IMG/VR virus record: IMGVR_UViG_3300044641_005618
Reading direction: 5' to 3' (one strand)
DNA: 64,000 nt
From: a virus
Taxonomy: Duplodnaviria > Caudoviricetes
The position numbers were made by a program, and so were the translations under genes. How positions within the stretch are numbered: position 1 is the stretch's first letter; every line of letters begins with the position of its first letter. Under the pieces are notes generated by a model. The model searched no databases and had not been told where the DNA came from. It saw only the letters and a list, made by a program, of their open reading frames with translations. Positions 181 to 62,943 of the stretch are shown here, piece by piece.

Positions 181-402
181 GCAATTGCTTCGCAATTCGC
201 TGAGAATGTGGTCTATGCTAGCAGGGTGGAGTAGTTCGGTTGTGGTTGGCGAGGAATAGCGATAGCCATGGGAGCGAGCCCATTTGAGTAGGGACTGTTC
301 AAGGTCGAAGCATTCTCCGAGGGTGGCGTGGTGATTTCTACACTGAACTGTCTCCCGGTGACTATTTAACACCAGGTTTTCCAAAAAAGACGTAGTAGTC
401 AA
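175..402 (-). CDS. hypothetical protein
   Basis: 75-aa ORF on the coding strand with a TTG start; no recognisable motif. Confidence 0.35.
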   Translation of the reverse strand: MTTTSFLENLVLNSHRETVQCRNHHATLGECFDLEQSLLKWARSHGYRYSSPTTTELLHPASIDHILSELRSNCG

Positions 403-966
403 AGAAAGTGTCGCTAAGACTTAGTCTGTCTTCGGAGGAATACTTAATTTTACCAAGGCCCTCTATGCGAAAACCTCTACGTTTGATTCCACTGGATCTC
501 CCACTTTTCGCTGCTTGCCCTGGAGCATAAATTCCTACTCCTCTTTCTTTGATGACTTGATTACCTTTAGCTCCCCCTACCCTTTTTTCCTCCTGCACTC
601 TTCAGTGTTTCCCTTTAAGGCGTTTAGTCTTTGCCGATCTGAACTCCAAAAACCGGTTTTATTTCTCTTACAAACTTCGTGGGTTGCATAGGCGCCCAAC
701 ACAGGAATAACAGAGTCCCCTCCTGCTTTAACCCTTCCTGTCATCATATTCACTGAGGCTAAATCTTTAGTCTCTCCGTAAACTTCCCAACGAATCCTAT
801 GCGCTTTTATGTGGTCTTTGACTAAGCACTCGACTATGTTGTCCTCTTTGTATTCGCCTCCAGCGTGACCCGGTAAAATGCGATGAGTTTGAGATGATAT
901 ACCATGACCTAGAAGTGCTTTCTCTTTTTCTTTGAGATGTAGTATATAAGAAGTGTACTTGTCCAT
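362..966 (-). CDS. free-standing HNH-like homing endonuclease, apparently split by a frameshift near 577-598
   Basis: ORF 577..966 has an HNH-like pattern (THRILPGHAGG..N.V...H..AH); ORF 362..598 continues the same K-x-x-G-x-G repeat style (KRNKTGFW / KERGVGIY); the two overlap by 22 nt across an A6 run. Confidence 0.55.
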
Positions 967-1023
967 AGAAAATCCTCCACGCTTGTTATAGCGCAGAGGA
1001 CAGTGCAGTAAAGATTGCTAAAA

Positions 1024-3044
1024 TTAGCCTACACTTGGTGCGGTCAAAGCAACTGGCGTTGCAGCGACAGAGGCCAAATCAAGGGGAAAATTATGGGCAT
1101 TCATTACCCGGTAGGGTAACCGCTGTTTCCAACGGGATCGGACTATATCATCAAATTGCTTTTGCAATTTGTCGGGCGCTAATCTGGTTTTACGTAGCAC
1201 GCTTGTTACACCCAGTAGTCTCTGAACCTTCCTTAGAAGCGTCTAAGGCTTGGCTGCTGATTGGCCCTTGGGCTTTCCAGCAATTCACCCGATTTAAAGA
1301 GCGCAATGCCTAGTTTCACGCTCGTGCATAACTTCTAAGCCTAAATTTGCTTTATTAAGCAAATCTGCCCAAGTGTTAACCACACGACCCTGGCTATCTT
1401 GAATGGACTGGTTAAAATTGAAACCATTTAAGTTAAATCCTGCGACAAAGATACCGCAAGCAGCAAACCAGATTCCAATCACAGGGAGTGCTGCCATAAC
1501 AAAGTGCAGAGAGCGACTATTGTTGAAAGAAGCGTATTGGAACAAGAGGCGTCCCAGATACCCGTGAGCGGACACCAGATTGTAGGTTTCTTGGTTTTGC
1601 CCAAATTTGTAACCGTAGTTCTGACTTTCATTCTCAGTGGTTTCTCTTACCAAAGATGAGGTTACAAGAGAGCCATGTGTGGCACTGATTAAAGCACCTC
1701 CGAACACACCGGCAACTCCAATCATGTGGAAGGGAGACATTAGTATGTTATGCTCCGCAGAAAAAACCAACATGAAATTGAACTGGCCGGAGATTCCCAG
1801 AGGGAATCCGTCAGAGAATGATCCTTGGCTGATGGGGTAAGCCAGGAAAATTGCGGTTGCCGCTGCTACGGGGGCAGAGTAAGCCACGCAAATCCAGGGT
1901 CTTTGGCCGAGGCGATAAGAAAGTTCCCACTCACGCCCCATGTAGCAAAAGATGCCAATAAGGAAGTGGAAAACGATAAGTTGGTAAGGGCCACCATTGT
2001 AGCAGGGTGGCGTCCGCTAGTTCCCTAACGGCGTGGACTATATTATCGTTTTGCTTCGCAAAACAAAACGTCGGGAGCTCTAGCCTGTCATTAAGAAACA
2101 CTGTAGTTTCTCAGGTAGTCTCTGAACGTTCCTCCGGTGTACCGAAGGCTTCGCTGCTGATTGCCCGTTTTGCAGAAGCAAAACTAGGGTTCCCAGTCAA
2201 TTCACCCGATTTAGGGTGGCCCTACAGGCTGAGCCACTCATCAAGGGAAGCAGCTTCCCAGATTGGATAGAACACCTACCCGTAAGTTTCCTTACGGAGC
2301 TGACTATATCATCAACTTGTAAACAAGTCGTCGGGCGCTAGCGGTGTATTACATCCCACGCTTGGGAAACCACCTAGTCGATGAACGTTTCCTAGAAGAT
2401 CGTCTAGGACTTCGCTGCTGATTGCCCGTTTTGCTAAGCAAAACTAGGGTTCCCAGTCAATTCACCCGATTTGCTTACGGCCTCACGGCAGTAAGGCACT
2501 CCTTTACGAATGCAATCCAATCGCATTAGAACTTGGTACTACGGCACCACTGATGCTTTCTCTGTGAGAAAGTGGACTATATCTTCATCTTTGTTTTTGC
2601 AAAGAGCTGGGCGCTCTGTTTACTTCTTTTCGATGTAAAGCCTGTTATTAAGAAACACTGTAGTTTCTCAGGTAGTCTCTGAACGTTCCTCCGGTGTACC
2701 GAAGGCTTCGCTGCTGATTGTCTTAGTATCCCAACTTTGGAGTTGAATACTCAAGGTATCCCAGCAATTCACCCAGTTTACTTCTGCGAATCACTTCGCA
2801 GTGACACCATCTAGATGTTGTTGCCGTACATAAGCGAACCAGCAACTGGCTCACGAATTCCGTCGATATCGACAGGAGGTGCTGCGACGAACGCAACGAT
2901 GAAGCAAATAGTTGCAGCTAGCAACGTGGGGATCATGATTGTACCGAAATTTCCGATATATAACCGGTTGTCGGTACTCGTGACCCAACTAAGGTAACGC
3001 TCCCAAAGATTACTCTGAGGACGTTGTAAAACTGAACTAGCCAT
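1024..3044 (-). CDS. psbA: photosystem II D1 protein, 5 exons (3044-2815, 2555-2510, 2272-2232, 2002-1318, 1101-1024), 359 aa
   Basis: Exons sum to 1080 nt and restore canonical D1 across each junction: YGNNI|[15 protein letters not shown]|[14 protein letters not shown]|YNGGPYQL...VMHER|[10 protein letters not shown]. Confidence 0.97.
1102..1317 (-). mobile_element. group I intron 4 of psbA (216 nt, ORF-less), between codons R334 and N335
   Basis: 5' exon ends in U (CGU), intron ends in G; conserved elements AAAUCGGGUGAAUUGCUGGAA, AAUCAGCAG, GUUCAGAGACUA and GAUAUAGUC. Confidence 0.93.
2003..2231 (-). mobile_element. group I intron 3 of psbA (229 nt, ORF-less), within codon L106
   Basis: P1 pairing of exon GUGGCU with intron GGCCAC places a U.G pair at the splice site; terminal G; core elements present. 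Confidence 0.92.
2273..2509 (-). mobile_element. group I intron 2 of psbA (237 nt, ORF-less), after codon H92 (nt 276)
   Basis: Exon ends CAU, intron ends G before UUC UAU CCA; core elements present. Confidence 0.92.
2556..2814 (-). mobile_element. group I intron 1 of psbA (259 nt, ORF-less), within codon I77
   Basis: Exon ends AU, intron ends G before C AUC AGU GGU; core elements present. Confidence 0.92.
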
Positions 3045-3240
3045 TTAGCATGATTAAGTAAGTGATCTTAGGGAAAGATCTGTTACAAAACCCTCACTAC
3101 CCTAAGGTGAGGCAGGATGAGAGACAGATTGACTTGCCTAGTCCCGGTAGCGGCAAGGCGGTTGAAAGAATCAACCGCGACACAGGTAGTATAGGGTGCT
3201 TAGCGATCGGTAAACGTTGGTTCCAAAACTTTGCTGGAGG

Positions 3241-3379
3241 AAAACTTTACTGCTGTACCGTCCGGTCTCACACGCCGTGTAAAGACATACTCACCACCTT
3301 CAGTAAAGTTTACAGACTAAGTATGAGTTGCAAGCTGAGCAAACTGCTCAAGTACGGTTTCGGAAAAAGACCCTTGCAG
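3241..3379 (-). pseudogene. decayed copy of the leader + YDFTRC cassette
   Basis: Reads (L)QGSFSETVLEQFAQLATHT*SVNFTEGGEYVFTRRVRPDGTAVK: CTG in place of ATG, in-frame TAG at 3319-3317, D>V and C>R in the module. Confidence 0.75.
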
Positions 3380-3472: not shown

Positions 3473-4630
3473 TCAGGTAGTGGAGTTAAAGGTCCTATGA
3501 GTCGTATAAGGGGTAGCTTTCAGAGACTCTTCGAAGAATCCGGGTTTGTTTGTCTTAAGCCCTGCCCCAAAAATAACCGTATGCCAAAGGGATATCTCTC
3601 TAGAGCTTTCTTTAAACATGTAAGTTTGATCCAGACTCGCCTCGGAAGAGGTGGAGGGGACCATTTTCCCGTTACTTTTCTTGGCATACTGGTTCATCCC
3701 TGGCGGTCCATCAATTTCTTCCCCGTCCTTCGTCGTTTTTGGTCTGGAAAATCCCATCTTAACATAAGCGTCCATTCTACTCTGACCCCTACCGTCTTCC
3801 GTCCAAGCTTTCGTCGTCACTACGGCGCCCTCTGGAAGAGACTTAACAAGAGCTTCGTACGTACGACGGACGGTGTTTGCCACTTCAATTTGCTCCCCTC
3901 TCTGCGTTACTGTACCCGCGTCATACTTTCCGTTAACCTTAAAGTCGAAGTGTTTTCGCCCAAACTCCGTCTTCACACGATGTCCTGACTTTGTTGTGAC
4001 TTCAGTGACGATGCTCGCAAAGGGGGAAGAAACGAAGACTTTGGTTCCCGCCGGAACGTTGTCCACCATACCGCTTAGGATTTTTTCGTTAGTCTTAAAT
4101 TTGTTTAGTTCCTTGTTGAGCCTTTCCAGCTCAAAGTCTAGGTATTCGTCAGGTTTGGGGTGCTTCTTCTTATACTCATTTAGTTCTTTTATCTTCTCCT
4201 CTATACTCTTCCTGGGCAAACCCCCTGTTAGCTTAGTGGTATCACCTACCAACTCACCTCCGATTTTGGGCTTAGTTGGTTCCTTTGGCTTGGGAGGTAT
4301 CTCTGAACCTTTCTTCTCGTCAATTAGCTTCTGAATCTTGGCGGCCTGGTGAGGCTTTACTCTCGGATCACCTGGAAGCTTTTCCAGGTCCCCGACGGAA
4401 GGGCTCTTAACCGTCTTCCCAACGCGCATTTCTCGAACCCTCGGTGGGACTTCACCCTTGGCCTCTTCCGTACCCTTCCTACACTGCCCCGCCGTCCCAT
4501 ACACAGTACCGTCCGGTTTCACACAGCGTGTAAAGTCATAGGTTTCCCCCTCAGCAAAATCCGCACCTTGCAGTTTAATCACAAGATTCCTGTAGGAATC
4601 TAGCGCAATTTCTGAGAAGTAACCACCCAT
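3473..4630 (-). CDS. modular-family protein: leader + YDFTRC + DPR module + GNAT-like C-terminal domain
   Basis: Start revised to ATG 4630 (MGGYFSEIALDSY); DFAEGETYDFTRCVKPDG; C-terminal GRGQSRMDAYVKMGFS resembles the GNAT R/N-x4-5-Y-x-K-x-G-F motif. Confidence 0.7.
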   Translation of the reverse strand: MGGYFSEIALDSYRNLVIKLQGADFAEGETYDFTRCVKPDGTVYGTAGQCRKGTEEAKGEVPPRVREMRVGKTVKSPSVGDLEKLPGDPRVKPHQAAKIQKLIDEKKGSEIPPKPKEPTKPKIGGELVGDTTKLTGGLPRKSIEEKIKELNEYKKKHPKPDEYLDFELERLNKELNKFKTNEKILSGMVDNVPAGTKVFVSSPFASIVTEVTTKSGHRVKTEFGRKHFDFKVNGKYDAGTVTQRGEQIEVANTVRRTYEALVKSLPEGAVVTTKAWTEDGRGQSRMDAYVKMGFSRPKTTKDGEEIDGPPGMNQYAKKSNGKMVPSTSSEASLDQTYMFKESSREISLWHTVIFGAGLKTNKPGFFEESLKATPYTTHRTFNSTT

Positions 4631-6461: not shown

Positions 6462-8734
6462 AGGAATAGTTCTCCGGCGACATCAAGATTAGGGAAAGAC
6501 TTGCACGCTGCATCCAGCAGCTTGTTGAATCCGGGTGTTTTCTCCATTTCCCTGTACTTTCTTATAAATTTGTCCCAGTTGGCTCGCTCGTATCCATCTT
6601 CTTCTGTAAAGAAGTATTTTGTACGGTACTTTACTTTGATATTGTTCCTCTTGTCTAAGACCTGAATGTCCCGTGAAACGTATCTTTTTAGATCTCTGTC
6701 AGTTAACTCGGGGCTATCCCCACGACCCTTAAGGGAAGCTGAACGGTGGAGCAGGTTGACTAAAACTTCTTCCGCAGGTGAGGGACTAAACGAGCCAATA
6801 CCAAACCACTCTCCAATTTTTTCCGGGCCACCGAGAAAACTGTGTAGTAAAACGTGGACTCGGTCGTGCTCCCAGTCGACTGAGCCCGGATACGCAGTTA
6901 GGCCAGCTTTTTTCCTCCATTCCTCCGCAGCGGCTTCCACAGCGACGAAGTCCAAGTTGTTCCCCCCTTCAAACAACCTTTTCGGTGCTTTACTTGTTTT
7001 GGGTCGAGGTTTTTTCTTGTCTGCCGCCTGCTCTACCCCTTTGCGACACTTTCCTTTCGTGCCGTACGCAGTGCCATCGGGCCTCACACAACGTGTAAAG
7101 TCATAGCGTTCCTCTTCGGAGAAGCACTCATCGTTTAGCTCAGAGGTGAGCTGTGAGTAGGCAACTAGTGAACTTTCGGAGAATGTTCCGTTCATTTTGC
7201 TCTTGGCGAGGGCTGGGGCAACAGGGTCTTTTGAGGTCGTTTTGCTCTTAGGGGGTGGTTCCCATGAGTGGTCCTTCATGAGCTGATTATACCGTCTTTG
7301 AGCCTCTAACATCCTTGTAATTTCCTCGCGGTTGAGCGCACCCTCCTTGTCGAGTGCCGTTTGCAGTTCAGCCCTGGCTTTTTTCGTCGCCAGGGTGCCC
7401 CCGTAATTCGCCCGCACACGCTCGGTAATGTTCGCGTTAAGAACCATTGCGTTACCCAATTCCTGCCCTCTCAGTTCTCTCTTCGGTGCAAGTTCCTGGC
7501 GCCTTTGACCTTCTTTCGCCGCTCCCCTGGCGGGAGAGGAGTCCCCGACCATCGTGTCTTTCTTCGCCCCTCCAGGGTTCCGATCGTCCATTGCATCGTT
7601 AACACGTCGCATCCGTATTTGGGCCAGTCGATTTCTGTTAGCGTACACAACTCGCCCTGCTCGCCCTTCTGCGTTGGATAACCTGCTCCCCAAAGGTGCC
7701 TGAAGCGCACCACGGTCTCTAAGGTAGTCTTGTGCTTTAGCGCCTATCTGTTCGCCCCTTTTGAACATAGCTTCAGTTCTTCTTGCCATTGCAACTGAGT
7801 GTGGTAATGTACCCCCCTTGGAAGTTGCCGCTTGAGGTCCCTTTAACCCCTCCCCCTGCTTCTCCTTCAACAACTTATTCAGCTGCCCCCTTTGCCTATC
7901 ATTCAGTCTCGGGTCACTCAGAACTTTCTTAAGGTCCTCAGCCCCCAAAGCCTTAATCTTCTCAGTAACCCGCATTCCACCCGGCTTCGCCCCCCTCTTC
8001 TTCTTGTCCGACACCATCTCCTTGCTTGGAGTGGGGTCCGCAGCCTGAGAAATTCGGGCCTTGCTCGGAAACTTTGTGACCCCGCTCGGAGTCAGGTTCT
8101 CTGGTACAAGGGGAACCATCACACCGGTCTCAATTCTCCCTTTGTCCAGGGAGTCCCGAATTTGCATCTTCGTCTGATTGAGCTTTTTATAGGCACTACT
8201 CAACTTTTCAATCTTATCCTGTGTGGTTTTCCTTAGGTCATCAAACTTCGGTGAGTCTGACATGCGCTTCAGCAACCCCTCCTGGCGGCTTAGCTTCTCT
8301 CCCACCTCTTTCATTTTCTCGTTAATTACAGCCCAGTGCTCACCGGTTAGAGCCGCTTTGACTTTGCCCTTTGCACCCACCGTTTGAGTCCGCCCAGAGC
8401 TTTCTACAATCTTCGACCCTTTCGGGAGCATTCCCGCAAGTTGGCTTATTGCATCGTTCTCTCCCTTGTCCTCTTGGACCCCCTTGCGGCAGGTCCCCCC
8501 GGTGCCGTATGCAGTGCCATTGGGGCGGACGCAGCGGGTGTAGTCGTAGTTCTCAATGTATTCTCCGCGAGCCTCACCGGATTTTGCAACAAATTGCTGC
8601 TCTCCACGACTCCTAGCCCCTTCAGAGAAATCTTGAAGTCCCCCTACACTTGAGATGGCGGACGCTTCGTAGCCTGCATCCCGCATCATCGCGAGAAACT
8701 TTTCGGCGGAGTCAGGGGTGAAGGAGCCTTGCAT
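6458..8734 (-). CDS. modular-family protein with two leader + YDFTRC units, a DPR module and a C-terminal HDxxH domain
   Basis: MQGSFTPDS...YDYTRC at the N-terminus; internal MNGTFSESSLVAY (ATG 7195)...CFSEEERYDFTRC; C-terminal WEHDRVHVLLH...AEE. Confidence 0.8.
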   Translation of the reverse strand: MQGSFTPDSAEKFLAMMRDAGYEASAISSVGGLQDFSEGARSRGEQQFVAKSGEARGEYIENYDYTRCVRPNGTAYGTGGTCRKGVQEDKGENDAISQLAGMLPKGSKIVESSGRTQTVGAKGKVKAALTGEHWAVINEKMKEVGEKLSRQEGLLKRMSDSPKFDDLRKTTQDKIEKLSSAYKKLNQTKMQIRDSLDKGRIETGVMVPLVPENLTPSGVTKFPSKARISQAADPTPSKEMVSDKKKRGAKPGGMRVTEKIKALGAEDLKKVLSDPRLNDRQRGQLNKLLKEKQGEGLKGPQAATSKGGTLPHSVAMARRTEAMFKRGEQIGAKAQDYLRDRGALQAPLGSRLSNAEGRAGRVVYANRNRLAQIRMRRVNDAMDDRNPGGAKKDTMVGDSSPARGAAKEGQRRQELAPKRELRGQELGNAMVLNANITERVRANYGGTLATKKARAELQTALDKEGALNREEITRMLEAQRRYNQLMKDHSWEPPPKSKTTSKDPVAPALAKSKMNGTFSESSLVAYSQLTSELNDECFSEEERYDFTRCVRPDGTAYGTKGKCRKGVEQAADKKKPRPKTSKAPKRLFEGGNNLDFVAVEAAAEEWRKKAGLTAYPGSVDWEHDRVHVLLHSFLGGPEKIGEWFGIGSFSPSPAEEVLVNLLHRSASLKGRGDSPELTDRDLKRYVSRDIQVLDKRNNIKVKYRTKYFFTEEDGYERANWDKFIRKYREMEKTPGFNKLLDAACKSFPNLDVAGELFL

Positions 8735-11411: not shown

Positions 11412-12787
11412 TCGTTTTCGTCGGGGATTTGTGAGTCCATGGCGGCAATGATTGCTCCACGGTTAAGGAGAACCAAATAGTCTTTCCCAAGTGAGGGGAA
11501 AGTGAAGGCGTGGATTCCCACTGCCGCTGCAGCTTCCCCCAAGTCCTTGAAGCGGTACCCGGTCTTATTCTGAGCTTCGTTCAGGGTTATTTCCCTCCAC
11601 CCCATGAGCTGTTCCATTCCCTCTTGCGCTGTTTTACCACTGAATTGTACTATATTTGCGTCTTTTCTAAGTGCAAAAGCCGTAACTTTTGAAGAAAGAT
11701 TATTCCTATCCCCTGCATACTCTTTTGCTGTCTTAATGGCTTTACGGGTAGACGCTTCGCTCGGGTCGTGGTAGGAAGGTGCTGCGGCGTAGGACCCATT
11801 GCCGAATATTCCTTTACCAGGGTAGTGACTACCCCCCTCGCTCCCCAACCCCTTAAATTGATCCGCGAATTTCTCGTCCCCAACACCACGATAGAAGATT
11901 AGAGGTGACCCGTCCGAGTTTGTTACAATGTCCTTTCGTTTTCGTAAATCGTCAACCGTTGCAACAAGTTCGGGCTTGGCGTTGAATCCCTGCTTCTCGT
12001 AAAGGGACTTTAAACTTGGCGACCACGGTAATTCTGTTTCACCGGAATCTTTCGGGACTCGTTTAGGAATCGGGGAGCTACTTCCCGGAGTCTTGTCATA
12101 CTTAGGGGAATTCTTTAGATCCGCTTCGTACGTCTTCGGGTCTCTGCCTGGCTTCTTCCTTTCCTTCAGCTCTCTTTCCTTCTGATAAATCAACAGTCGA
12201 AGATTAATCAATCGAGCCTTATTTGCAACCGTGTCCAACTCCGGCGACTTGACCAGGGTTTGCATCATCCTGTAACTTCTTTTTATTTCCGCCACTGCTT
12301 TGGGGCCTGACCCAACCCAATCGTATTCATCCTGCACCTTAGGGTTGTTTTCTGAGACTGCTTTCCTCAGCTCTTCCCTGCTGGTTTTCCTATCTGGCCC
12401 GCTACCCTTCTTGGACATCTGGCCCTCAGGAGCTTTCACTCCCCCTTTGCTCTTGAGCAAACCTTCTAAAACTGCCCTTTGCTTTGGGGTTACGCGAGGG
12501 TCCTGGAGAACCTTCTTAAGGTCTTCAGCTCCCAACCCTTTTATTTTTTCGGTGAGCCTCATTCCCCCTGCCTTAGGGCCACGCTTTCCTTTTACTTGAC
12601 TCTCCTCTTTCGCCCCAATTTCTGTACCCTGCTTACACTTTCCTCGGCTACCGTATATAGTACCGTCCTTCCTCACACAACGTGTAAAGTCGTACGTTTC
12701 CCCCTCGGAGAAGTTCAAAGGGTGCGTCTCGGCGACGAGAGCTTCGTACGCTTGGAGAGCTTCAAAAGAAAAAGAACCGTGTGCCAT
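11408..12787 (-). CDS. modular-family protein: leader + YDFTRC + DPR module + ADP-ribosyltransferase-like C-terminal domain
   Basis: Start revised to ATG 12787 (MAHGSFSFEALQAY); LNFSEGETYDFTRC; IFYRG...GKGIFGNGSY...AKEYA...YLVLLNRGAI resembles ART/PARP-fold motifs. Confidence 0.7.
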   Translation of the reverse strand: MAHGSFSFEALQAYEALVAETHPLNFSEGETYDFTRCVRKDGTIYGSRGKCKQGTEIGAKEESQVKGKRGPKAGGMRLTEKIKGLGAEDLKKVLQDPRVTPKQRAVLEGLLKSKGGVKAPEGQMSKKGSGPDRKTSREELRKAVSENNPKVQDEYDWVGSGPKAVAEIKRSYRMMQTLVKSPELDTVANKARLINLRLLIYQKERELKERKKPGRDPKTYEADLKNSPKYDKTPGSSSPIPKRVPKDSGETELPWSPSLKSLYEKQGFNAKPELVATVDDLRKRKDIVTNSDGSPLIFYRGVGDEKFADQFKGLGSEGGSHYPGKGIFGNGSYAAAPSYHDPSEASTRKAIKTAKEYAGDRNNLSSKVTAFALRKDANIVQFSGKTAQEGMEQLMGWREITLNEAQNKTGYRFKDLGEAAAAVGIHAFTFPSLGKDYLVLLNRGAIIAAMDSQIPDENE

Positions 12788-13426: not shown

Positions 13427-13993
13427 TCATCGCATTCTTCCACTAACTACTCCACCCTTAATACCCGACTCTACTCTTTTACGGAAAGAGTCTCTCTTTC
13501 TCTCTTCCGGGGTCATAGCCTCACGCTCTTTCGCTTCCTTGGTCCCAGCCTCGCTTCTACCCTCAAGTTTAAGCCTTTCTGCCATAGCCTTCTTTATGGC
13601 TAAGGCGTGGCCCTCTTTCACATCGGTTTCATCGTTGTCTATGGCTTTAATCACCGCCTTATGAATTGCCCCCAAGTGCTTCACTGACTCTGCCTTTGCG
13701 TAAATCTTGTTAAAGGTCTCGTCCGCGTCACTATTCCAGCTTATATTTCGTTTAGCGTCCTCTCTCGCTAGCTCCAGTTGTTCCGGCGTCATTGGGCCGA
13801 ACCCATGGCTTTTTGTTATGGCCACCTCTATTCCCTTGCGGCATTGTCCCGCCGTCCCATATGCGCTACCATCAGGTTTTACACATCGAGTGTAGTCGTA
13901 CGATTCTCCCTCAGAGAAGTTCTGGGGGTATCTTTGAGAAACAAGTGCTTCGTAAGCTGAGAGGGCTTCACAGGAAAAGGAACCGTTTGCCAT
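13427..13993 (-). CDS. short modular-family protein (leader + YDYTRC + basic helical tail)
   Basis: MANGSFSCEALSAY...QNFSEGESYDYTRCVKPDGSAYGTAGQCRKG. Confidence 0.85.
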   Translation of the reverse strand: MANGSFSCEALSAYEALVSQRYPQNFSEGESYDYTRCVKPDGSAYGTAGQCRKGIEVAITKSHGFGPMTPEQLELAREDAKRNISWNSDADETFNKIYAKAESVKHLGAIHKAVIKAIDNDETDVKEGHALAIKKAMAERLKLEGRSEAGTKEAKEREAMTPEERKRDSFRKRVESGIKGGVVSGRMR

Positions 13994-14641: not shown

Positions 14642-16206
14642 TAGATCCCCTCGTAGAGTGTGTTGATCACTTCCATCGCTTGCTTGTCGCTTAGCTTAGC
14701 CCAAGGTCCCACCTTATACTTCTCGTCGCGAGTGCTAGTTTTAGTGGTAAGGACTTTAGTCATGTCTTCACCGTCTATTCCAAAACTTCGGAGTTTCTCA
14801 ATGGCCTTTTCTTTGTTTATGTATGCTTTGTAGGCTAGCGGGGCGTCTTCTTCGAGAAATGCCAAGTAGTTTGCTTTTTGTTTCGGTGTGATATTCTTTC
14901 TTTCCACATCTGAAATCATGTTTCCACCTGGACCCCAACTCGAAAAGGTAGAGTCTGCGCTTTTTCCTCTGGGTCCCGGAAAGGCTCCTAGTGCCTCCAC
15001 AAGAGCAGCTTTCGGATTGTCTTGCGCCAGCCCCATATCAACGAATCGCCCTTTACCCTTCTCATCTACCAAAACATTGCCCCCATGCATATCATTGTGT
15101 GCGACCCCCATCCTGTGCAGATCTGCACGAGCCTTCCAATAGGCGTCGGTATTCGCTTTACTGGAATCTCTACTCGGATTCATACCTAGAGGGGTCCCTT
15201 GAACTTTCGACATAGCGATACGACCGTTCCTCAGGTCTACCCCCGTTCCCTTAGGTCCAGTGGGTCCGCCAATATCCGCAGCAATCAGCTTCGGCCCCAG
15301 GTCGGCTTTACCAACTTTATCGACGATAGCCGCCTCTGTACGGCTAACCATACCTCTTTTAACAACTTCGCCGTCCGGACTTAGAATCGCAGTGCCGAAC
15401 ATACCCGACCCCAGCATCTTAGCCTTTTCGCCAAAGGTTCGACTCCAACCATCGTACTTCGGGTCTCCCTGTCTCACATGGTTGCTCTTTTCGATCTTAG
15501 AGTCTATGATCGCGGCTATTTCTTCCTCGTAGGATAAACCATCTGAGTTCACTTTCTTGGAGGCCTCTCTTGGCCCCCGATTCTCCTCAAGAATGCTCTT
15601 GATGTCGTCCAGAACTTCTTTCTTCGTTACTTTTGCTCCGCCGCTCTGACCCCCACCGGGTCCTAACCCTAACCCTGACGCTTTTCGTTGTGACACAGCC
15701 GAAACTTTTTTAGCGATCGCCGGTGAAAGTTGCCGTTCGGCCAGCAGCTTGTTTACTTGCGCTCTCTGTTTGTCGTTCAGCCTCGGGTCATTTAGAACCT
15801 TCTTCAGTTCTTCAACGGGTAGCGCCTTGACTTTGGCTGTCAAACGCATTTTTCCCTGCGTTACGGCCCCCTTTGACGGGTCCGGTACCGCTTTCTTACT
15901 CAACAGCTTCTCTGAGAGTTTTGAGAGTGATGAGTGGAGCTCAGGAGGGAGAGGTTTCCCCGGTAGCGTTGGTTTCACCCCCTTCTTCACCCCTTTGCCT
16001 TCACCTCTTACTTTTTTCCCTGGAGCGTCTTCCTTAACTTGCTCTGTACCCTTCCTACACTGTCCCGCCGTCCCATACACAGTGCCATCTTTCCTCACAC
16101 AACGAGTGAAGTCATACGTTTCCCCCTCAGAAAAGTCCGAGGGGTGCTGTTCGGCGATCAGTGTTTTGTACGCCTGAAGAGCATCGGACGAGAAGGAACC
16201 TTGCAC
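14641..16206 (-). CDS. modular-family protein: leader + YDFTRC + DPR module + protein kinase domain
   Basis: Start revised to GTG 16206; LGSGMFG glycine loop, VVK, HNDMHGGNV catalytic loop, FVDMG. Confidence 0.88.
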   Translation of the reverse strand: MQGSFSSDALQAYKTLIAEQHPSDFSEGETYDFTRCVRKDGTVYGTAGQCRKGTEQVKEDAPGKKVRGEGKGVKKGVKPTLPGKPLPPELHSSLSKLSEKLLSKKAVPDPSKGAVTQGKMRLTAKVKALPVEELKKVLNDPRLNDKQRAQVNKLLAERQLSPAIAKKVSAVSQRKASGLGLGPGGGQSGGAKVTKKEVLDDIKSILEENRGPREASKKVNSDGLSYEEEIAAIIDSKIEKSNHVRQGDPKYDGWSRTFGEKAKMLGSGMFGTAILSPDGEVVKRGMVSRTEAAIVDKVGKADLGPKLIAADIGGPTGPKGTGVDLRNGRIAMSKVQGTPLGMNPSRDSSKANTDAYWKARADLHRMGVAHNDMHGGNVLVDEKGKGRFVDMGLAQDNPKAALVEALGAFPGPRGKSADSTFSSWGPGGNMISDVERKNITPKQKANYLAFLEEDAPLAYKAYINKEKAIEKLRSFGIDGEDMTKVLTTKTSTRDEKYKVGPWAKLSDKQAMEVINTLYEGI

Positions 16207-24818: not shown

Positions 24819-25069
24819 AGTGACACAAGGTGAAAGGCGTAAGCAAGATGCTCTGTCCCCTCTATGAAGGTCTTCACAAGAAGGCGAGGAGTGTACAACT
24901 CACAGAGACAACTCAGTTCCTGAACCGTTCCAATCTTGTCGTACAACCCTGCGGGGTCATCTGCCAAGACAAAACCCTCGGATTCCAGTTGCTCCTTGAG
25001 CCTAAGTTGCTTTTGGCATTCGTATGTAAAAGAATCCACGAGGGTTTGTTCAGAGTTTTGTATGTTCAT
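24689..25069 (-). CDS. hypothetical protein
   Basis: 126-aa ORF; ATGA overlap with the helicase stop. Confidence 0.65.
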   Translation of the reverse strand: MNIQNSEQTLVDSFTYECQKQLRLKEQLESEGFVLADDPAGLYDKIGTVQELSCLCELYTPRLLVKTFIEGTEHLAYAFHLVSLWQIVKFGYLVPEPGQYFTTRYIVGVRKVSENSFVPSLRLPLN

Positions 25070-27356
25070 ACTTTTACCCCTTTAGCCTCGTAGAGTTTTT
25101 TACGTGCGGATTCTCGGAACCTTTCAGCAACATCGGGTGAGTAGTTCTTGTCAAGAAGCCAATCGTCACAGCAATTTGTCTTAGGGTTAAGTAGTCTTTG
25201 TTTGTCCATGTCTTCCATGGATTCAACTAGCTTTTCCCCTTCCAAAACAAGTTCCTCTTGAGCGTGACGACAATTGTTCCAGTTTTCAATGACGTAGTTC
25301 GCCTCGCCACCAATCTTAAAACCATCCCTCATCACCAGCTTTTCCATTATCTCTCGAATTAGCGTCAGAGCTGTTTTGTCCTTGGTCTCTTGCCGCTGAC
25401 CCGTCGTTTCGTCGAACAGAAACTCTCGTGCGAGGGAAATTGCCTTTCTCACAGATTCCCACCTTAGCTCTCGGAAACCTTGGTAGTAATGTGTCGACGG
25501 ACGCCCTGCGTTCTCCCACTCTTTTTTCATGCTCGCAGTTAAGTGTTGGCACGACGGGTCCACTCCCACAAAGTAAAGAGAACTGAGATACTCGTAGAGA
25601 ACGTCCGGCGTCAGCTCGGGCATGAAGCTAAGGTCTGACCCCGTTCGAACCGAGTGAGCGAACGCCATGGCATTAACGAGTGCCTGTGTGACATCGGCTT
25701 TGAATCGGATCCTTTGTCGTGTGGTCCAATAGCGCACTTCAACCTGAAGGCGATTGATGCGGGGATCAGCTACATCGTTAATGATTTCCCAGAACCTATC
25801 GGTAGCGAGGCGGAGACACCAAAGATACAACGCATCAGCACTCACACCTAGCTTATTAGCGAGGTAAGGAATGTGTGCTCGTGGGCGAAGGTCGGGAGAC
25901 CCCTCTGACACTGTCCCTTTCGTGTTCTCGATGTTTTTTGTTACCTCGTACTCCCTATATGTACTAATGAGCTTAATTCGATCTATGATCCCGGGGTCGA
26001 GATCGTAGGCAAACTTACTGTTCCAGTCATTGGAGTTAACCAATATGACTGTCTTTGGCCAAATTTGCTCGGCCTTCTCGAACTTTTCTTCTACTTGAAA
26101 TACCATGTGTTCAGACAACCTCGCTATGGTTATCTCGGGTCTTACCCAGCTGAATGTTACCATTCAGAGCAGACTATATCTTACTCCCCTTAGGGAGTCT
26201 TCCCGTTTCGAACCGCTTGGCTCTACTCTCTTTCGAGATAGTCGTTAGGCTTTCAAACCTTTCGGTTTGTTTAGCACGGTAGATTGCCCGTGGTACACAC
26301 GGGGTTCCCCCGTTTAGGGAAGTTTGCTCTCCGGTGTTTCCACCAGAGGGGGCTATACCGTCAAGCTAACCCATTCGTAATCAGAATCTTGGTCTCCTCA
26401 GAAGCAAGGAACTTCTTGAGAGAAGCCAAGGAGGTATCATCCTTGTATGCTATGTCACTAAGAGCAGCAGCTTTAAGGCCGAAGCGATCCTCAGTCGATT
26501 TAAACGTGTGAGTTACAAAACCGCACTTGGAAAAAGCTGCGGTCATTCCATTGAAGAGAGTCGACTTTCCTAATCCAGCATCCTTACCCACAATCACCCC
26601 CGCCATACGAGCAGTGTGATCTACAGGCTGGTCCTTTCCCGGTGGCAAGTGATTTGACCTGCCGACACCAATTCGCCCAATAATTAGTCTAAGCATTTCC
26701 CTCTCGGCTTCAGGAAAGATTGAGAAAACGTCAGCTAAGGTCACCATTTGCAGAACAGGGTTGAACCAGTCTCTGTCGGGAACCCACGACCTTGGATTAG
26801 AGACAGGAACTCCACCCCACCGAGCCGCAGGGTCAAACGTATGGCCGTAACTTAGCGTGTCATGAATGCTCTTGCTCATGTTTATTCTCTTCATCTTCAG
26901 CAGCCGCTCTGTGAAAGAGACGAGATCTGAGTCACCGGCTTTCGGCTTGAATAAAGGTTCCCAGAAAGTTCTTACGTCGTCTGGACACAAGTCAGGGTGA
27001 AAACAGGATTCGATCTTCTCAAAGTCGTCGTACACTGATATGTCTTGCAAAGGGTTGAAGTCTGCCGGGTACTGAATTCCCCTTACCATTACAGGTGGCG
27101 TGGGCTTCAGAATGCGGTGCCTACAGTGATCACCTGACTCGTCAATTTCAACAACGAACCCCCTCGCCTTCAGTAGAGTAATGCCTGAGTTGTAAAGCTC
27201 GGACACTTTTGTGGGTGCTCTTTTTTTCTTCTCTTGTTTTTCCTCTCCGTCTTTCTTCGACCGGAAGGACGCTGCCTTGTTTCGCTCTTTTGCTTCGGTT
27301 AGTATTCCAATCTCTTGTTTCGTACTTCCGAGTCCCCCGGAAAAGGGATCTGCCAT
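25066..27356 (-). CDS. superfamily 3 (D5-like) helicase/NTPase, 2 exons (27356-26369, 26102-25066), 674 aa
   Basis: Walker A GKDAGLGKST, Walker B-like IAYKDD; splicing restores KILITNGLFQVEEKF and motif C ILVNSN; exons sum to 2025 nt. Confidence 0.8.
26103..26368 (-). mobile_element. group I intron (266 nt, ORF-less) in the SF3 helicase gene
   Basis: P1 GGGUUA/UAGCCC with the U.G pair at 26369; GACUAU and AAGAUAUAGUC core; P9 CUGAAUG-GUAA-CAUUCAG GNRA hairpin; terminal G at 26103. Confidence 0.85.
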
Positions 27357-56957: not shown

Positions 56958-57841
56958 AGAATTCCCTCGTAAAGGGATTTGAGAAACTCCTTGACTTCGG
57001 AGTTTGAAAGATTCCTAATCGCCGGAGGTAGATCCGCTTCTTTGGTTCGTATTTCTACAGAATCATTCGAGTCGAACTTCAAGTTCGACACAACTTTACC
57101 CCAGTTCTCTTGAAATTTTCTGTATAGAACACTTCCCTGGCCGTCGTCTTCACCGAAAGCGGTTCTCGAGGAAGAGTCTTTGTTGGTAAGTAAGGCCTCC
57201 ACTAAAGCGTGACGGCTACCAATTTGAGATAGACCGAAATCTACGAACATAGTTCTCTTGGTTTTCGGGTCATAGAATACGTTTCCGTCGTGAGTATCGT
57301 TATGAGCTATTCCCGCCAAATGCATTCGAGCTCTTGCTCTCATCATGGAATCAATTTGCTCAACCTTTTGTTCCTTAGACAGGGACTGAGAAGATAGGGG
57401 CTTTCCTTTCGCTTCTTTCATTTGAATCATTCCGTCTCCCGAGGTGACATGCCCCCCAAATATAATTCTATTCACTAATTTCTCGTTTTTTAAGGGTGTA
57501 ACAGAAACTAAAGATGGGGCCAATCCTGTCCCACTTAAACGAGTTAGAGCTTCAGCTTCATGTTGACCTATTTTTCCTTTCTTAATAACTGTAGGAGGTG
57601 GACCCGCGTTCAAACGAACCTCCCCCATGTCCCCTTTTCCAAACGCTTCCCCCTCGTCAAACGCTTTCTGTATACTCCTTTTTTCGTTTTCTTGGCCCAC
57701 TTCAACCCCTTTTCTGCACCGTCCGGCTGTGCCGTAGTGCGTGCCGTCCAACCTTTCACAACGTGTGAAATCGTGAACCCCGGTGAGGAGTTCCCTCACC
57801 CTTTGAACAGAGTTATCTGTAAAGTAACCGAGTTTGCTCAT
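56954..57841 (-). CDS. modular-family protein: leader + HDFTRC module + protein kinase domain
   Basis: Start revised to ATG 57841 (MSKLGYFTDNS); FGKGDMG, VIK, HNDTHDGNV, FVDFG. Confidence 0.86.
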   Translation of the reverse strand: MSKLGYFTDNSVQRVRELLTGVHDFTRCERLDGTHYGTAGRCRKGVEVGQENEKRSIQKAFDEGEAFGKGDMGEVRLNAGPPPTVIKKGKIGQHEAEALTRLSGTGLAPSLVSVTPLKNEKLVNRIIFGGHVTSGDGMIQMKEAKGKPLSSQSLSKEQKVEQIDSMMRARARMHLAGIAHNDTHDGNVFYDPKTKRTMFVDFGLSQIGSRHALVEALLTNKDSSSRTAFGEDDGQGSVLYRKFQENWGKVVSNLKFDSNDSVEIRTKEADLPPAIRNLSNSEVKEFLKSLYEGIL

Positions 57842-62358: not shown

Positions 62359-62943
62359 TCAATCTTCTGTGTCTACTCCGGGAATTTCTCCTCTGAACAT
62401 CATATCGTCGTCTGTTTGCCTTGCCCAGTAACTCTCTTTCAGGTCTGAAACTGAGGGAAGGCCTCTTTTCGGTATGTTAAAGTCTTTTAAGGCTTCTACC
62501 ACTTCTTTAGCAATTCCTTGTCTCTGCGATTTAGTTAATTCACTGGGCCATAACTCATCTTTTCGAATTTCTTTAACAATAGATTCAACGGTTAAATTAA
62601 CCTTGGCTTTAACCATAGACGGGGTTGTAACCTTGCCCCCACTTCTTTGAGCTGTGGCTTTCTTTTCTACCGGTTGTTTGGCTTCTTCAGTACCCTTCTT
62701 ACACTTCCCTCGGGTGCCATAGGCCGAGCCGTCGGCTCGGACACACCGTGTAAAGTCAAAAGAGCCAAGGAGTGTGTTCACAGCTTCTTCAATGAATGGG
62801 TATTTGTTCCCGTAATTTTCAGAGAAGGACAAACCTTCGGATGCTAACGCATCCGCTTCATTGCGGAGTTCTAAAGCTTCGCCTAAGTTACCTTTCAGTG
62901 CTTCTGAGAGGGCTTCGAGGTAACAGTGGTCGAGTTTGTTCAT
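62359..62943 (-). CDS. modular-family protein with an FDFTRC module
   Basis: LSFSE...FDFTRCVRADGSAYGTRGKCKKG; start revised to ATG 62943. Confidence 0.82.
   Translation of the reverse strand: MNKLDHCYLEALSEALKGNLGEALELRNEADALASEGLSFSENYGNKYPFIEEAVNTLLGSFDFTRCVRADGSAYGTRGKCKKGTEEAKQPVEKKATAQRSGGKVTTPSMVKAKVNLTVESIVKEIRKDELWPSELTKSQRQGIAKEVVEALKDFNIPKRGLPSVSDLKESYWARQTDDDMMFRGEIPGVDTED

Follow-up and report, generated by a model that had tools for sequence, protein, structure and literature searches.

Probable exchange of helical parts among the group I introns of a cyanophage psbA gene

Background

Domain shuffling between the introns of phage T4 was reportedly described by Bryk and Belfort in 1990. 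Recombination between the group I introns of the T4 genes td, nrdB and sunY/nrdD is the subject of an earlier report (Hall, Liu and Shub 1989, Nature 340:574). The introns of the cyanophage psbA gene analyzed here resemble those of T4 in that hybrid introns appear to have formed by homologous recombination through the conserved elements of the intron core. The T4 hybrids were obtained in the laboratory from three introns of different genes, whereas those described below are fixed in natural populations; and, unlike in T4, the exchanges are short internal tracts that can be polarized with orthologues. Intron recombination is already known from T4, and the present locus is a new natural case of it.

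The psbA gene of S-PM2 has one group I intron and, with the free-standing endonuclease F-CphI, is the model of "collaborative homing" (PMC6083498, PMC5931967). Intron 4 of the present gene lies at the same CDS position (nt 1002), is also ORF-less, and is accompanied by a free-standing nuclease gene after psbA. S-PM2 has a single intron and a partner of the Endo VII type, whereas there are four introns and an HNH-like neighbor here. For the psbA introns of the freshwater phage S-SRM01 and of S-CBWM1, one endonuclease-bearing intron is reported in the available part of the source (PMC8557907). Spliced alignment finds three psbA introns in S-SRM01, an HNH-bearing one at the site of our intron 2 and another at the site of intron 4; the available part of that source mentions one intron and no exchange between introns. 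In Staphylococcus phage Twort, three similar group I introns lie in one gene and exon skipping occurs (Landthaler and Shub 1999, via the accessible text of PMC3073962). The present psbA likewise contains several similar introns in one phage gene; directional swapping of parts is not described for Twort in the accessible text of PMC3073962. By analogy, exon skipping would be a plausible side reaction in the present psbA, with its exons of 46 and 41 nt. No report of part exchange among psbA introns was found in the literature searched, which included few subscription journals.

The psbA gene and its introns

The window, a 64,000-nucleotide stretch of viral DNA (IMG/VR record IMGVR_UViG_3300044641_005618), carries psbA at its start (3044 to 1024, minus strand), where a UvrD-like helicase region and an HNH-like gene flank it. 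The window's proteins are also found on a 262-kb contig, and the DNA is therefore assigned to a large cyanophage. Four introns interrupt the gene (Table 1), their limits being taken from the spliced reading frame. Splicing them out produces a 1080-nt CDS that encodes a 359-aa D1 protein with one terminal stop and none internal.

Table 1. Features of the psbA region, by position in the window
Feature	Position	Strand	Description
Free-standing HNH-like homing endonuclease gene	362..966	-	directly after psbA; frameshifted at ~588
psbA exon 5	1024..1101	-	78 nt including stop
Intron 4, group I	1102..1317	-	216 nt, ORF-less; after codon 334 (CDS nt 1002), S-PM2 site
psbA exon 4	1318..2002	-	685 nt; divergent D1 segment
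Intron 3, group I	2003..2231	-	229 nt, ORF-less; in codon 106 (CDS nt 317)
Intron 3, 3' part	2003..2081	-	P3 3' strand, P8, S element, P9, 3' end; P9 and 3' end site-specific
Block A in intron 3	2082..2163	-	Q, P6, R, P7.1; P6 also in L082/L039 intron 3 and site-556 introns
Block B in intron 3	2149..2212	-	P3 5' strand to Q; common to intron 2, L021/L163 site-750 intron and two G002 introns
Intron 3, P1/internal guide	2213..2231	-	site-specific; 2 differences from ORF-bearing orthologue L068
psbA exon 3	2232..2272	-	41 nt
Intron 2, group I	2273..2509	-	237 nt, ORF-less; after codon 92 (CDS nt 276)
Block B in intron 2	2410..2472	-	P3 5' strand, P4, P5, Q; probably a received tract
psbA exon 2	2510..2555	-	46 nt
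Intron 1, group I	2556..2814	-	259 nt, ORF-less; in codon 77 (CDS nt 230)
Block A in intron 1	2639..2720	-	Q, P6, R, P7.1; probably a received tract
psbA exon 1	2815..3044	-	230 nt; from the spliced frame

All four introns pass the gathering cut-off of the Rfam model RF00028 (50 bits), intron 3 with 67.5 bits and the others with 74.6-104.6. In each, a U precedes the 5' splice site and a G is the 3' end; the U of the 5' exon pairs with a G in P1, and P10 is formed with the 3' exon (pairings read by eye). P3 has 5/5 pairs in all four, and P7 is visible in the Rfam alignment. An insertion of ~36-57 nt separates the P7 5' strand from the P3 3' strand in the window introns; a P7.1/P7.2 insertion at this place is the criterion of subgroup IA. 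By their sequence and the restored frame, the four elements are group I introns predicted to self-splice. None of them (216-259 nt) contains a homing endonuclease ORF. Intron 4 has no long block in common with introns 1-3 and was used as an internal control.

Intron 3 has a stable minimum-energy fold (z -4.4), in which, however, P5 is paired with P8 and the group I core is missing; this fold was left out of the structural evidence. The P8 hairpin of intron 3 (2048-2064) is approximately an inverted repeat of the P5 hairpin of introns 2 and 3 (2428-2444), which lets the two hairpins mispair in the predicted fold. A fifth group I intron was detected with Rfam at 26150-26378 (minus strand), between the ORFs at 26361-27356 and 25066-26163; no block of at least 25 nt is common to it and the psbA introns.

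The D1 segment encoded by exon 4 deviates from canonical D1, for example at Q139, S164, F172, Q179, S187, S195, T214, L255 and L278. This divergent type is common to a cluster of 27 proteins, and a pattern search for the divergent segment gave no matches. Close relatives (L016-L020) have another divergent D1, encoded by an intron-less gene. The exons are mosaic: CDS nt 58-230 and 277-317 are nearer to canonical phage psbA and nt 361-750 nearer to the type of the divergent lineage, a pattern that homing of the intron cluster together with flanking exon would produce. The HNH-like gene after psbA lacks a base at ~588 in the window and is intact, with 201 aa, in L015/L046/L048; relatives carry it next to other intron sets, and L162 encodes a 129-aa form of the same length. 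A short protein module with two cysteines recurs in at least eight ORFs of the window (4458-4538, 7023-7103, 8466-8546, 12612-12692, 13818-13898, 16034-16114, 57693-57773 and 62678-62758), with a decayed copy at ~3255-3307, immediately upstream of psbA.

Blocks shared between introns

For comparison, ~150 loci were gathered by junction searches and their introns were placed with a spliced aligner. Intron 3 has one long block in common with each upstream neighbor. Block A matches at 80 of 81 nt between intron 3 (2083-2163) and intron 1 (2640-2720), as the preliminary description of the locus had reported; the sole mismatch is at 2089/2646, and the block extends to 82 nt with 81 identical (2082..2163 and 2639..2720). 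Block B, noted earlier as identical but for a small loop change, has 62 matches in 64 columns between intron 3 (2149-2212) and intron 2 (2410-2472), and the differences are in the P5 loop. The longest block (one mismatch or less) between psbA introns at different sites has a median of 19-20 nt, as determined from 210 psbA introns of 84 non-redundant loci. The 82-nt block of introns 1 and 3 is at the 99th percentile of matched pairs, and among the 237 co-resident pairs none has a longer one; that of introns 2 and 3 (38 nt with one mismatch or less) is at the 98.6th percentile of matched pairs. Both are far above the background and are therefore not due to chance.

The two blocks overlap at 2149-2163, which is the conserved Q element. 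The overlap on which a single crossover had been proposed is thus real, but the crossover does not account for the rest of the intron. The P3 3' strand of intron 3 is of another type than that of intron 1 and is complementary to the 5' strand of intron 3 itself, and P8 matches neither neighbor, being found otherwise only in L044. Because this P3 3' strand and this P8 follow block A, several short tracts are needed rather than one crossover. Segments of introns 1, 2 and 3 have different closest relatives, with sharp boundaries between them, so that each is a mosaic, and intron 3 itself appears to be a patchwork drawn from a wider pool.

Direction of transfer

The closest orthologues of intron 1 (L039/L041 and L082) are without block A. 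Compared with L041/L082, intron 1 differs at 2/35 positions in P1/P2 and 3/24 in P8, versus 30/47 in P4-P5, 7/28 in P6 and 31/57 in P7.1, while the L041 and L082 copies are identical to each other in P4-P5, P6 and P7.1. P1/P2 and P8 are thus native to the site, and the stretch from P5 to P7.2 is replaced relative to these orthologues. The P6 of window intron 3 is present unchanged in L082 intron 3 and with two differences in L041 intron 3; that of L082's own intron 1 differs at 7/28. Since the orthologues of intron 1 are without block A and a co-resident intron 3 has its P6, the window intron 1 is the altered one. At the block A mismatch, intron 1 has the common base and intron 3 a rare base that also occurs in L044, which fits an intron 3 tract that stopped just before the mismatch. 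The P7.1 form that window introns 1 and 3 have in common recurs in a site-556 intron of L013, where block A as a whole is 97.5% identical; L039/L082 intron 3 has another form. No donor was found for the P5 and P7.2 of intron 1. On this evidence intron 1 is probably the recipient of block A, though less clearly so for the P7.1 part.

Intron 2 equals its L013 orthologue in P1/P2, P6, P7.1 and P9, with one change in P8. Of the 14 differences between them, 13 fall in P4-P5, which makes up 38 of the 239 columns (Fisher p 7e-11, for a segment picked after inspection). The P5 ends of the L013 and L082 intron 2 resemble those of ORF-bearing copies. The likeness to L013 everywhere except in P4-P5, together with these P5 ends, marks the P4-P5 of window intron 2 as foreign. 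The same P4-P5 is present in L044 intron 3 and, with 5 differences, in the site-750 intron of the related L021/L163. It is also found at 91% and 88% identity in two introns of another gene, probably a capsid gene, of the relative G002, the psbA of which is intron-less. At the start of that probable capsid gene ~6 group I introns are clustered (G002:191794-194750; L173-L178), and two neighboring ones have near-identical P4-P5 resembling block B. Searches for exact block B in viral contigs returned one unrelated intron and then nothing.

A P4 base common to window introns 2 and 3 is absent from L044 intron 3 and from L013 intron 2, and L044 intron 3 has the loop of window intron 2. This pattern suggests repeated homogenization between introns 2 and 3 in this lineage. 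The intron 2 copies of L013 and L082 have the extra P4 base, and P4 may therefore have passed at an earlier stage from intron 2 to intron 3. For block B as a whole, intron 2 is probably the recipient, judged from the orthologues. The direction stated in the preliminary description, in which intron 3 was built from introns 1 and 2, is thus reversed: the orthologues without blocks show that introns 1 and 2 were altered.

The codon-106 site and its endonuclease ORFs

The psbA genes collected (L001-L161) have at least 18 distinct group I intron sites and a maximum of nine introns per gene, in L059; the contig L010/L082 has seven. Sixty-one non-redundant loci have an intron in codon 106, as intron 3 does, a count that does not rank the sites since this was the one searched. 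Long, ORF-sized inserts are carried by 46 of these 61 introns, and by 10/13 orthologues at the intron 1 site and 10/13 at the intron 2 site. The codon-106 insert is located in P5 where inspected. Among the 19 codon-106 introns with the P1 type of the window, 13 have a long insert. A match to a homing-endonuclease family was obtained for the codon-106 ORF of L093; L068, whose intron has the window-type P1, contains an ORF 50% identical to that of L093. Pfam gave no match for the codon-106 ORFs or for the gene downstream of psbA; PHROGs matched some.

Because the codon-106 site is old, widespread and mostly ORF-bearing, intron 3 is not a new intron at a new site, as had been thought. Its orthologues mark it as an ORF-less descendant of an old mobile lineage. 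Intron 3 was correctly described as being without an endonuclease ORF; this is true of the window copy and not of its site lineage, in which the ORFs tested are homing-endonuclease-like. Similarly, its P1 and 3' end are specific to its own site within the window, but they are common to many orthologues in other phages.

The ORF-less codon-106 introns of L055, L097 and L128 retain the start and the end of the lost ORF in P5, which shows that an internal deletion removed it. In other ORF-less copies the P5 hairpins are unrelated, and thus the ORF was lost several times. Loss through the conversions described above was considered and is unlikely: intron 2 of L013/L082 and intron 3 of L039/L082 are already ORF-less, with other P5 forms.

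Module exchange among psbA introns

Of the 210 psbA introns, 158 from 11 sites could be parsed into modules, which are 20-45 nt long; the other 52 were not parsed. The nearest neighbor of a module is at the same site in 100% of cases for P1/P2, 100% for P9, 92% for P8, 87% for P4-P5, 74% for P7.1 and 70% for P6. The P6 of 52 introns is identical to that of an intron at another site. Pairing is preserved: the P6 closing pair is complementary in 184/184 introns, and P3 is fully paired in 165/179, where some of the exceptions are due to parsing. A second conversion is seen in L039/L041, in which the P8 of intron 3 is identical to that of intron 4. With the ends 100% site-specific and P6 and P7.1 not, module swapping is, on these comparisons, general across psbA introns.

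Co-resident introns are no more alike than pairs at the same sites taken across genomes (mean percentile 0.49, p 0.71), and blocks of up to 90 nt are common between genomes. In the absence of an average co-resident excess, donors need not be neighbors. Uniform similarity of the three introns across related genomes, named earlier as the pattern contrary to exchange, was not found; the similarity is patchy and non-uniform. Recombination or gene conversion between introns, as first proposed, is still the best cause of the shared blocks.

Proposed explanation and alternatives

The explanation favored here, to which we assign a probability of roughly 0.7, is that intron 1 received Q-P6-R-P7.1, and intron 2 received P4-P5, either from intron 3 or from a third intron related to it. 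Each site lineage would be old and would usually have spread by homing with its own endonuclease ORF, and the orthologues suggest that the window copies have lost those ORFs. The short conserved elements common to the introns (P3/P4, Q, R, S) would allow homologous recombination between two copies to transfer the intervening stretch. Transfer probably occurred as short gene-conversion tracts primed in these core elements, and nuclease breaks near psbA probably promoted them. The exon-pairing parts, P1 and the 3' end, would remain with the site, whereas the hairpins P4-P5, P6, P7.1 and P8 would move whole. Selection would act such that only the swaps that leave the helices paired persist. Intron 3 would itself have acquired its parts earlier from a wider pool, including other psbA sites and the introns of another gene.

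An unlikely alternative is that introns 1, 2 and 3 each took their blocks from other introns, with no copying among the three. Candidate donors are the introns at psbA sites 556 or 750, those of another gene, or a co-infecting phage. The near-identity of block A to the L013 site-556 intron and the resemblance of block B to the L021 site-750 intron and the G002 introns (88-91%) agree with outside donors, as do the long blocks shared across genomes when co-resident pairs have no average excess. The window pairs, however, are closer to each other (1 and 2 differences) than to any outside donor found (2 and 5), and the P4 base of introns 2 and 3 that is absent from L044 intron 3 and L013 intron 2 argues for homogenization within the lineage.

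The reading of the preliminary description, that intron 3 was newly made at a new site without an endonuclease, intron 2 supplying its 5' half and intron 1 its middle, is improbable. The window taken alone shows exactly such a pattern. The P4-P5 and P7.1 of intron 3 differ from its own L039/L082 orthologues, so that parts were indeed received, and other intron 2 copies also carry the extra P4 base. A newly built intron is nevertheless at odds with the age and mostly ORF-bearing state of the codon-106 site and with the intron 1 and 2 orthologues without the blocks; moreover, the P6 is present in L082 intron 3 although no intron 1 there matches it, and the P3 3' strand and P8 came from neither neighbor.

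It is very improbable that no recombination occurred, i.e., that one intron was recently copied to new sites and that its ends and some hairpins then diverged fast while the blocks were conserved. All psbA introns do form one related family with short conserved elements, but modules within one intron have different nearest relatives, the blocks contain hairpin stems and loops that vary freely from one orthologue to the next, and intron 2 is otherwise identical to that of L013.

An assembly chimera of near-identical repeats, an artifact raised in the preliminary description, is hardly credible: two contigs, one of 90 kb (L015/L047) and one of 202 kb (L046), differ from the window over 301-3300 by 1 SNP and 1 indel, three shorter Logan contigs match it in every overlap, L044 bears the same mosaic intron 3 with its own substitutions, and the blocks are shorter than one sequencing read, so that misassembly is excluded as far as assemblies can tell, all comparisons being with metagenome assemblies. 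The point in its favor is that the repeat may collapse or recombine, as seen in the very close relative L162 (2233-2479), where the first 74 nt of intron 2 and the last 210 nt of intron 3 are joined in the common 37-nt stretch. This fusion removes the 41-nt exon 3 and would frameshift D1; from its sequence it could be either a real deletion recombinant or an assembly collapse.

Significance

The preferred reading, exchange with intron 3 or its relative as the donor, would make these introns a natural and polarized example of ribozyme domain shuffling, hitherto documented chiefly by experiments with T4. A single tree of phage group I introns blends several histories, and the direction of a mosaic is unreadable from one genome. 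The 200-odd psbA introns are a natural set of helix swaps with which the modularity of group I folding can be tested. The psbA genes of these cyanophages, mostly from fresh or brackish water, are often multiply split and are therefore mis-annotated or missed in surveys.

A broader proposal, which we hold tentatively and at a little under even odds, is that cyanophage group I introns form one recombining pool of interchangeable parts, common to at least 18 psbA sites, to other genes and to several phage lineages. If so, the identity of an intron would rest only on its exon-pairing ends, the catalytic core being continually rebuilt helix by helix, and endonuclease ORFs, located inside the P5 module at two of these sites, could also be lost or gained through such swaps.
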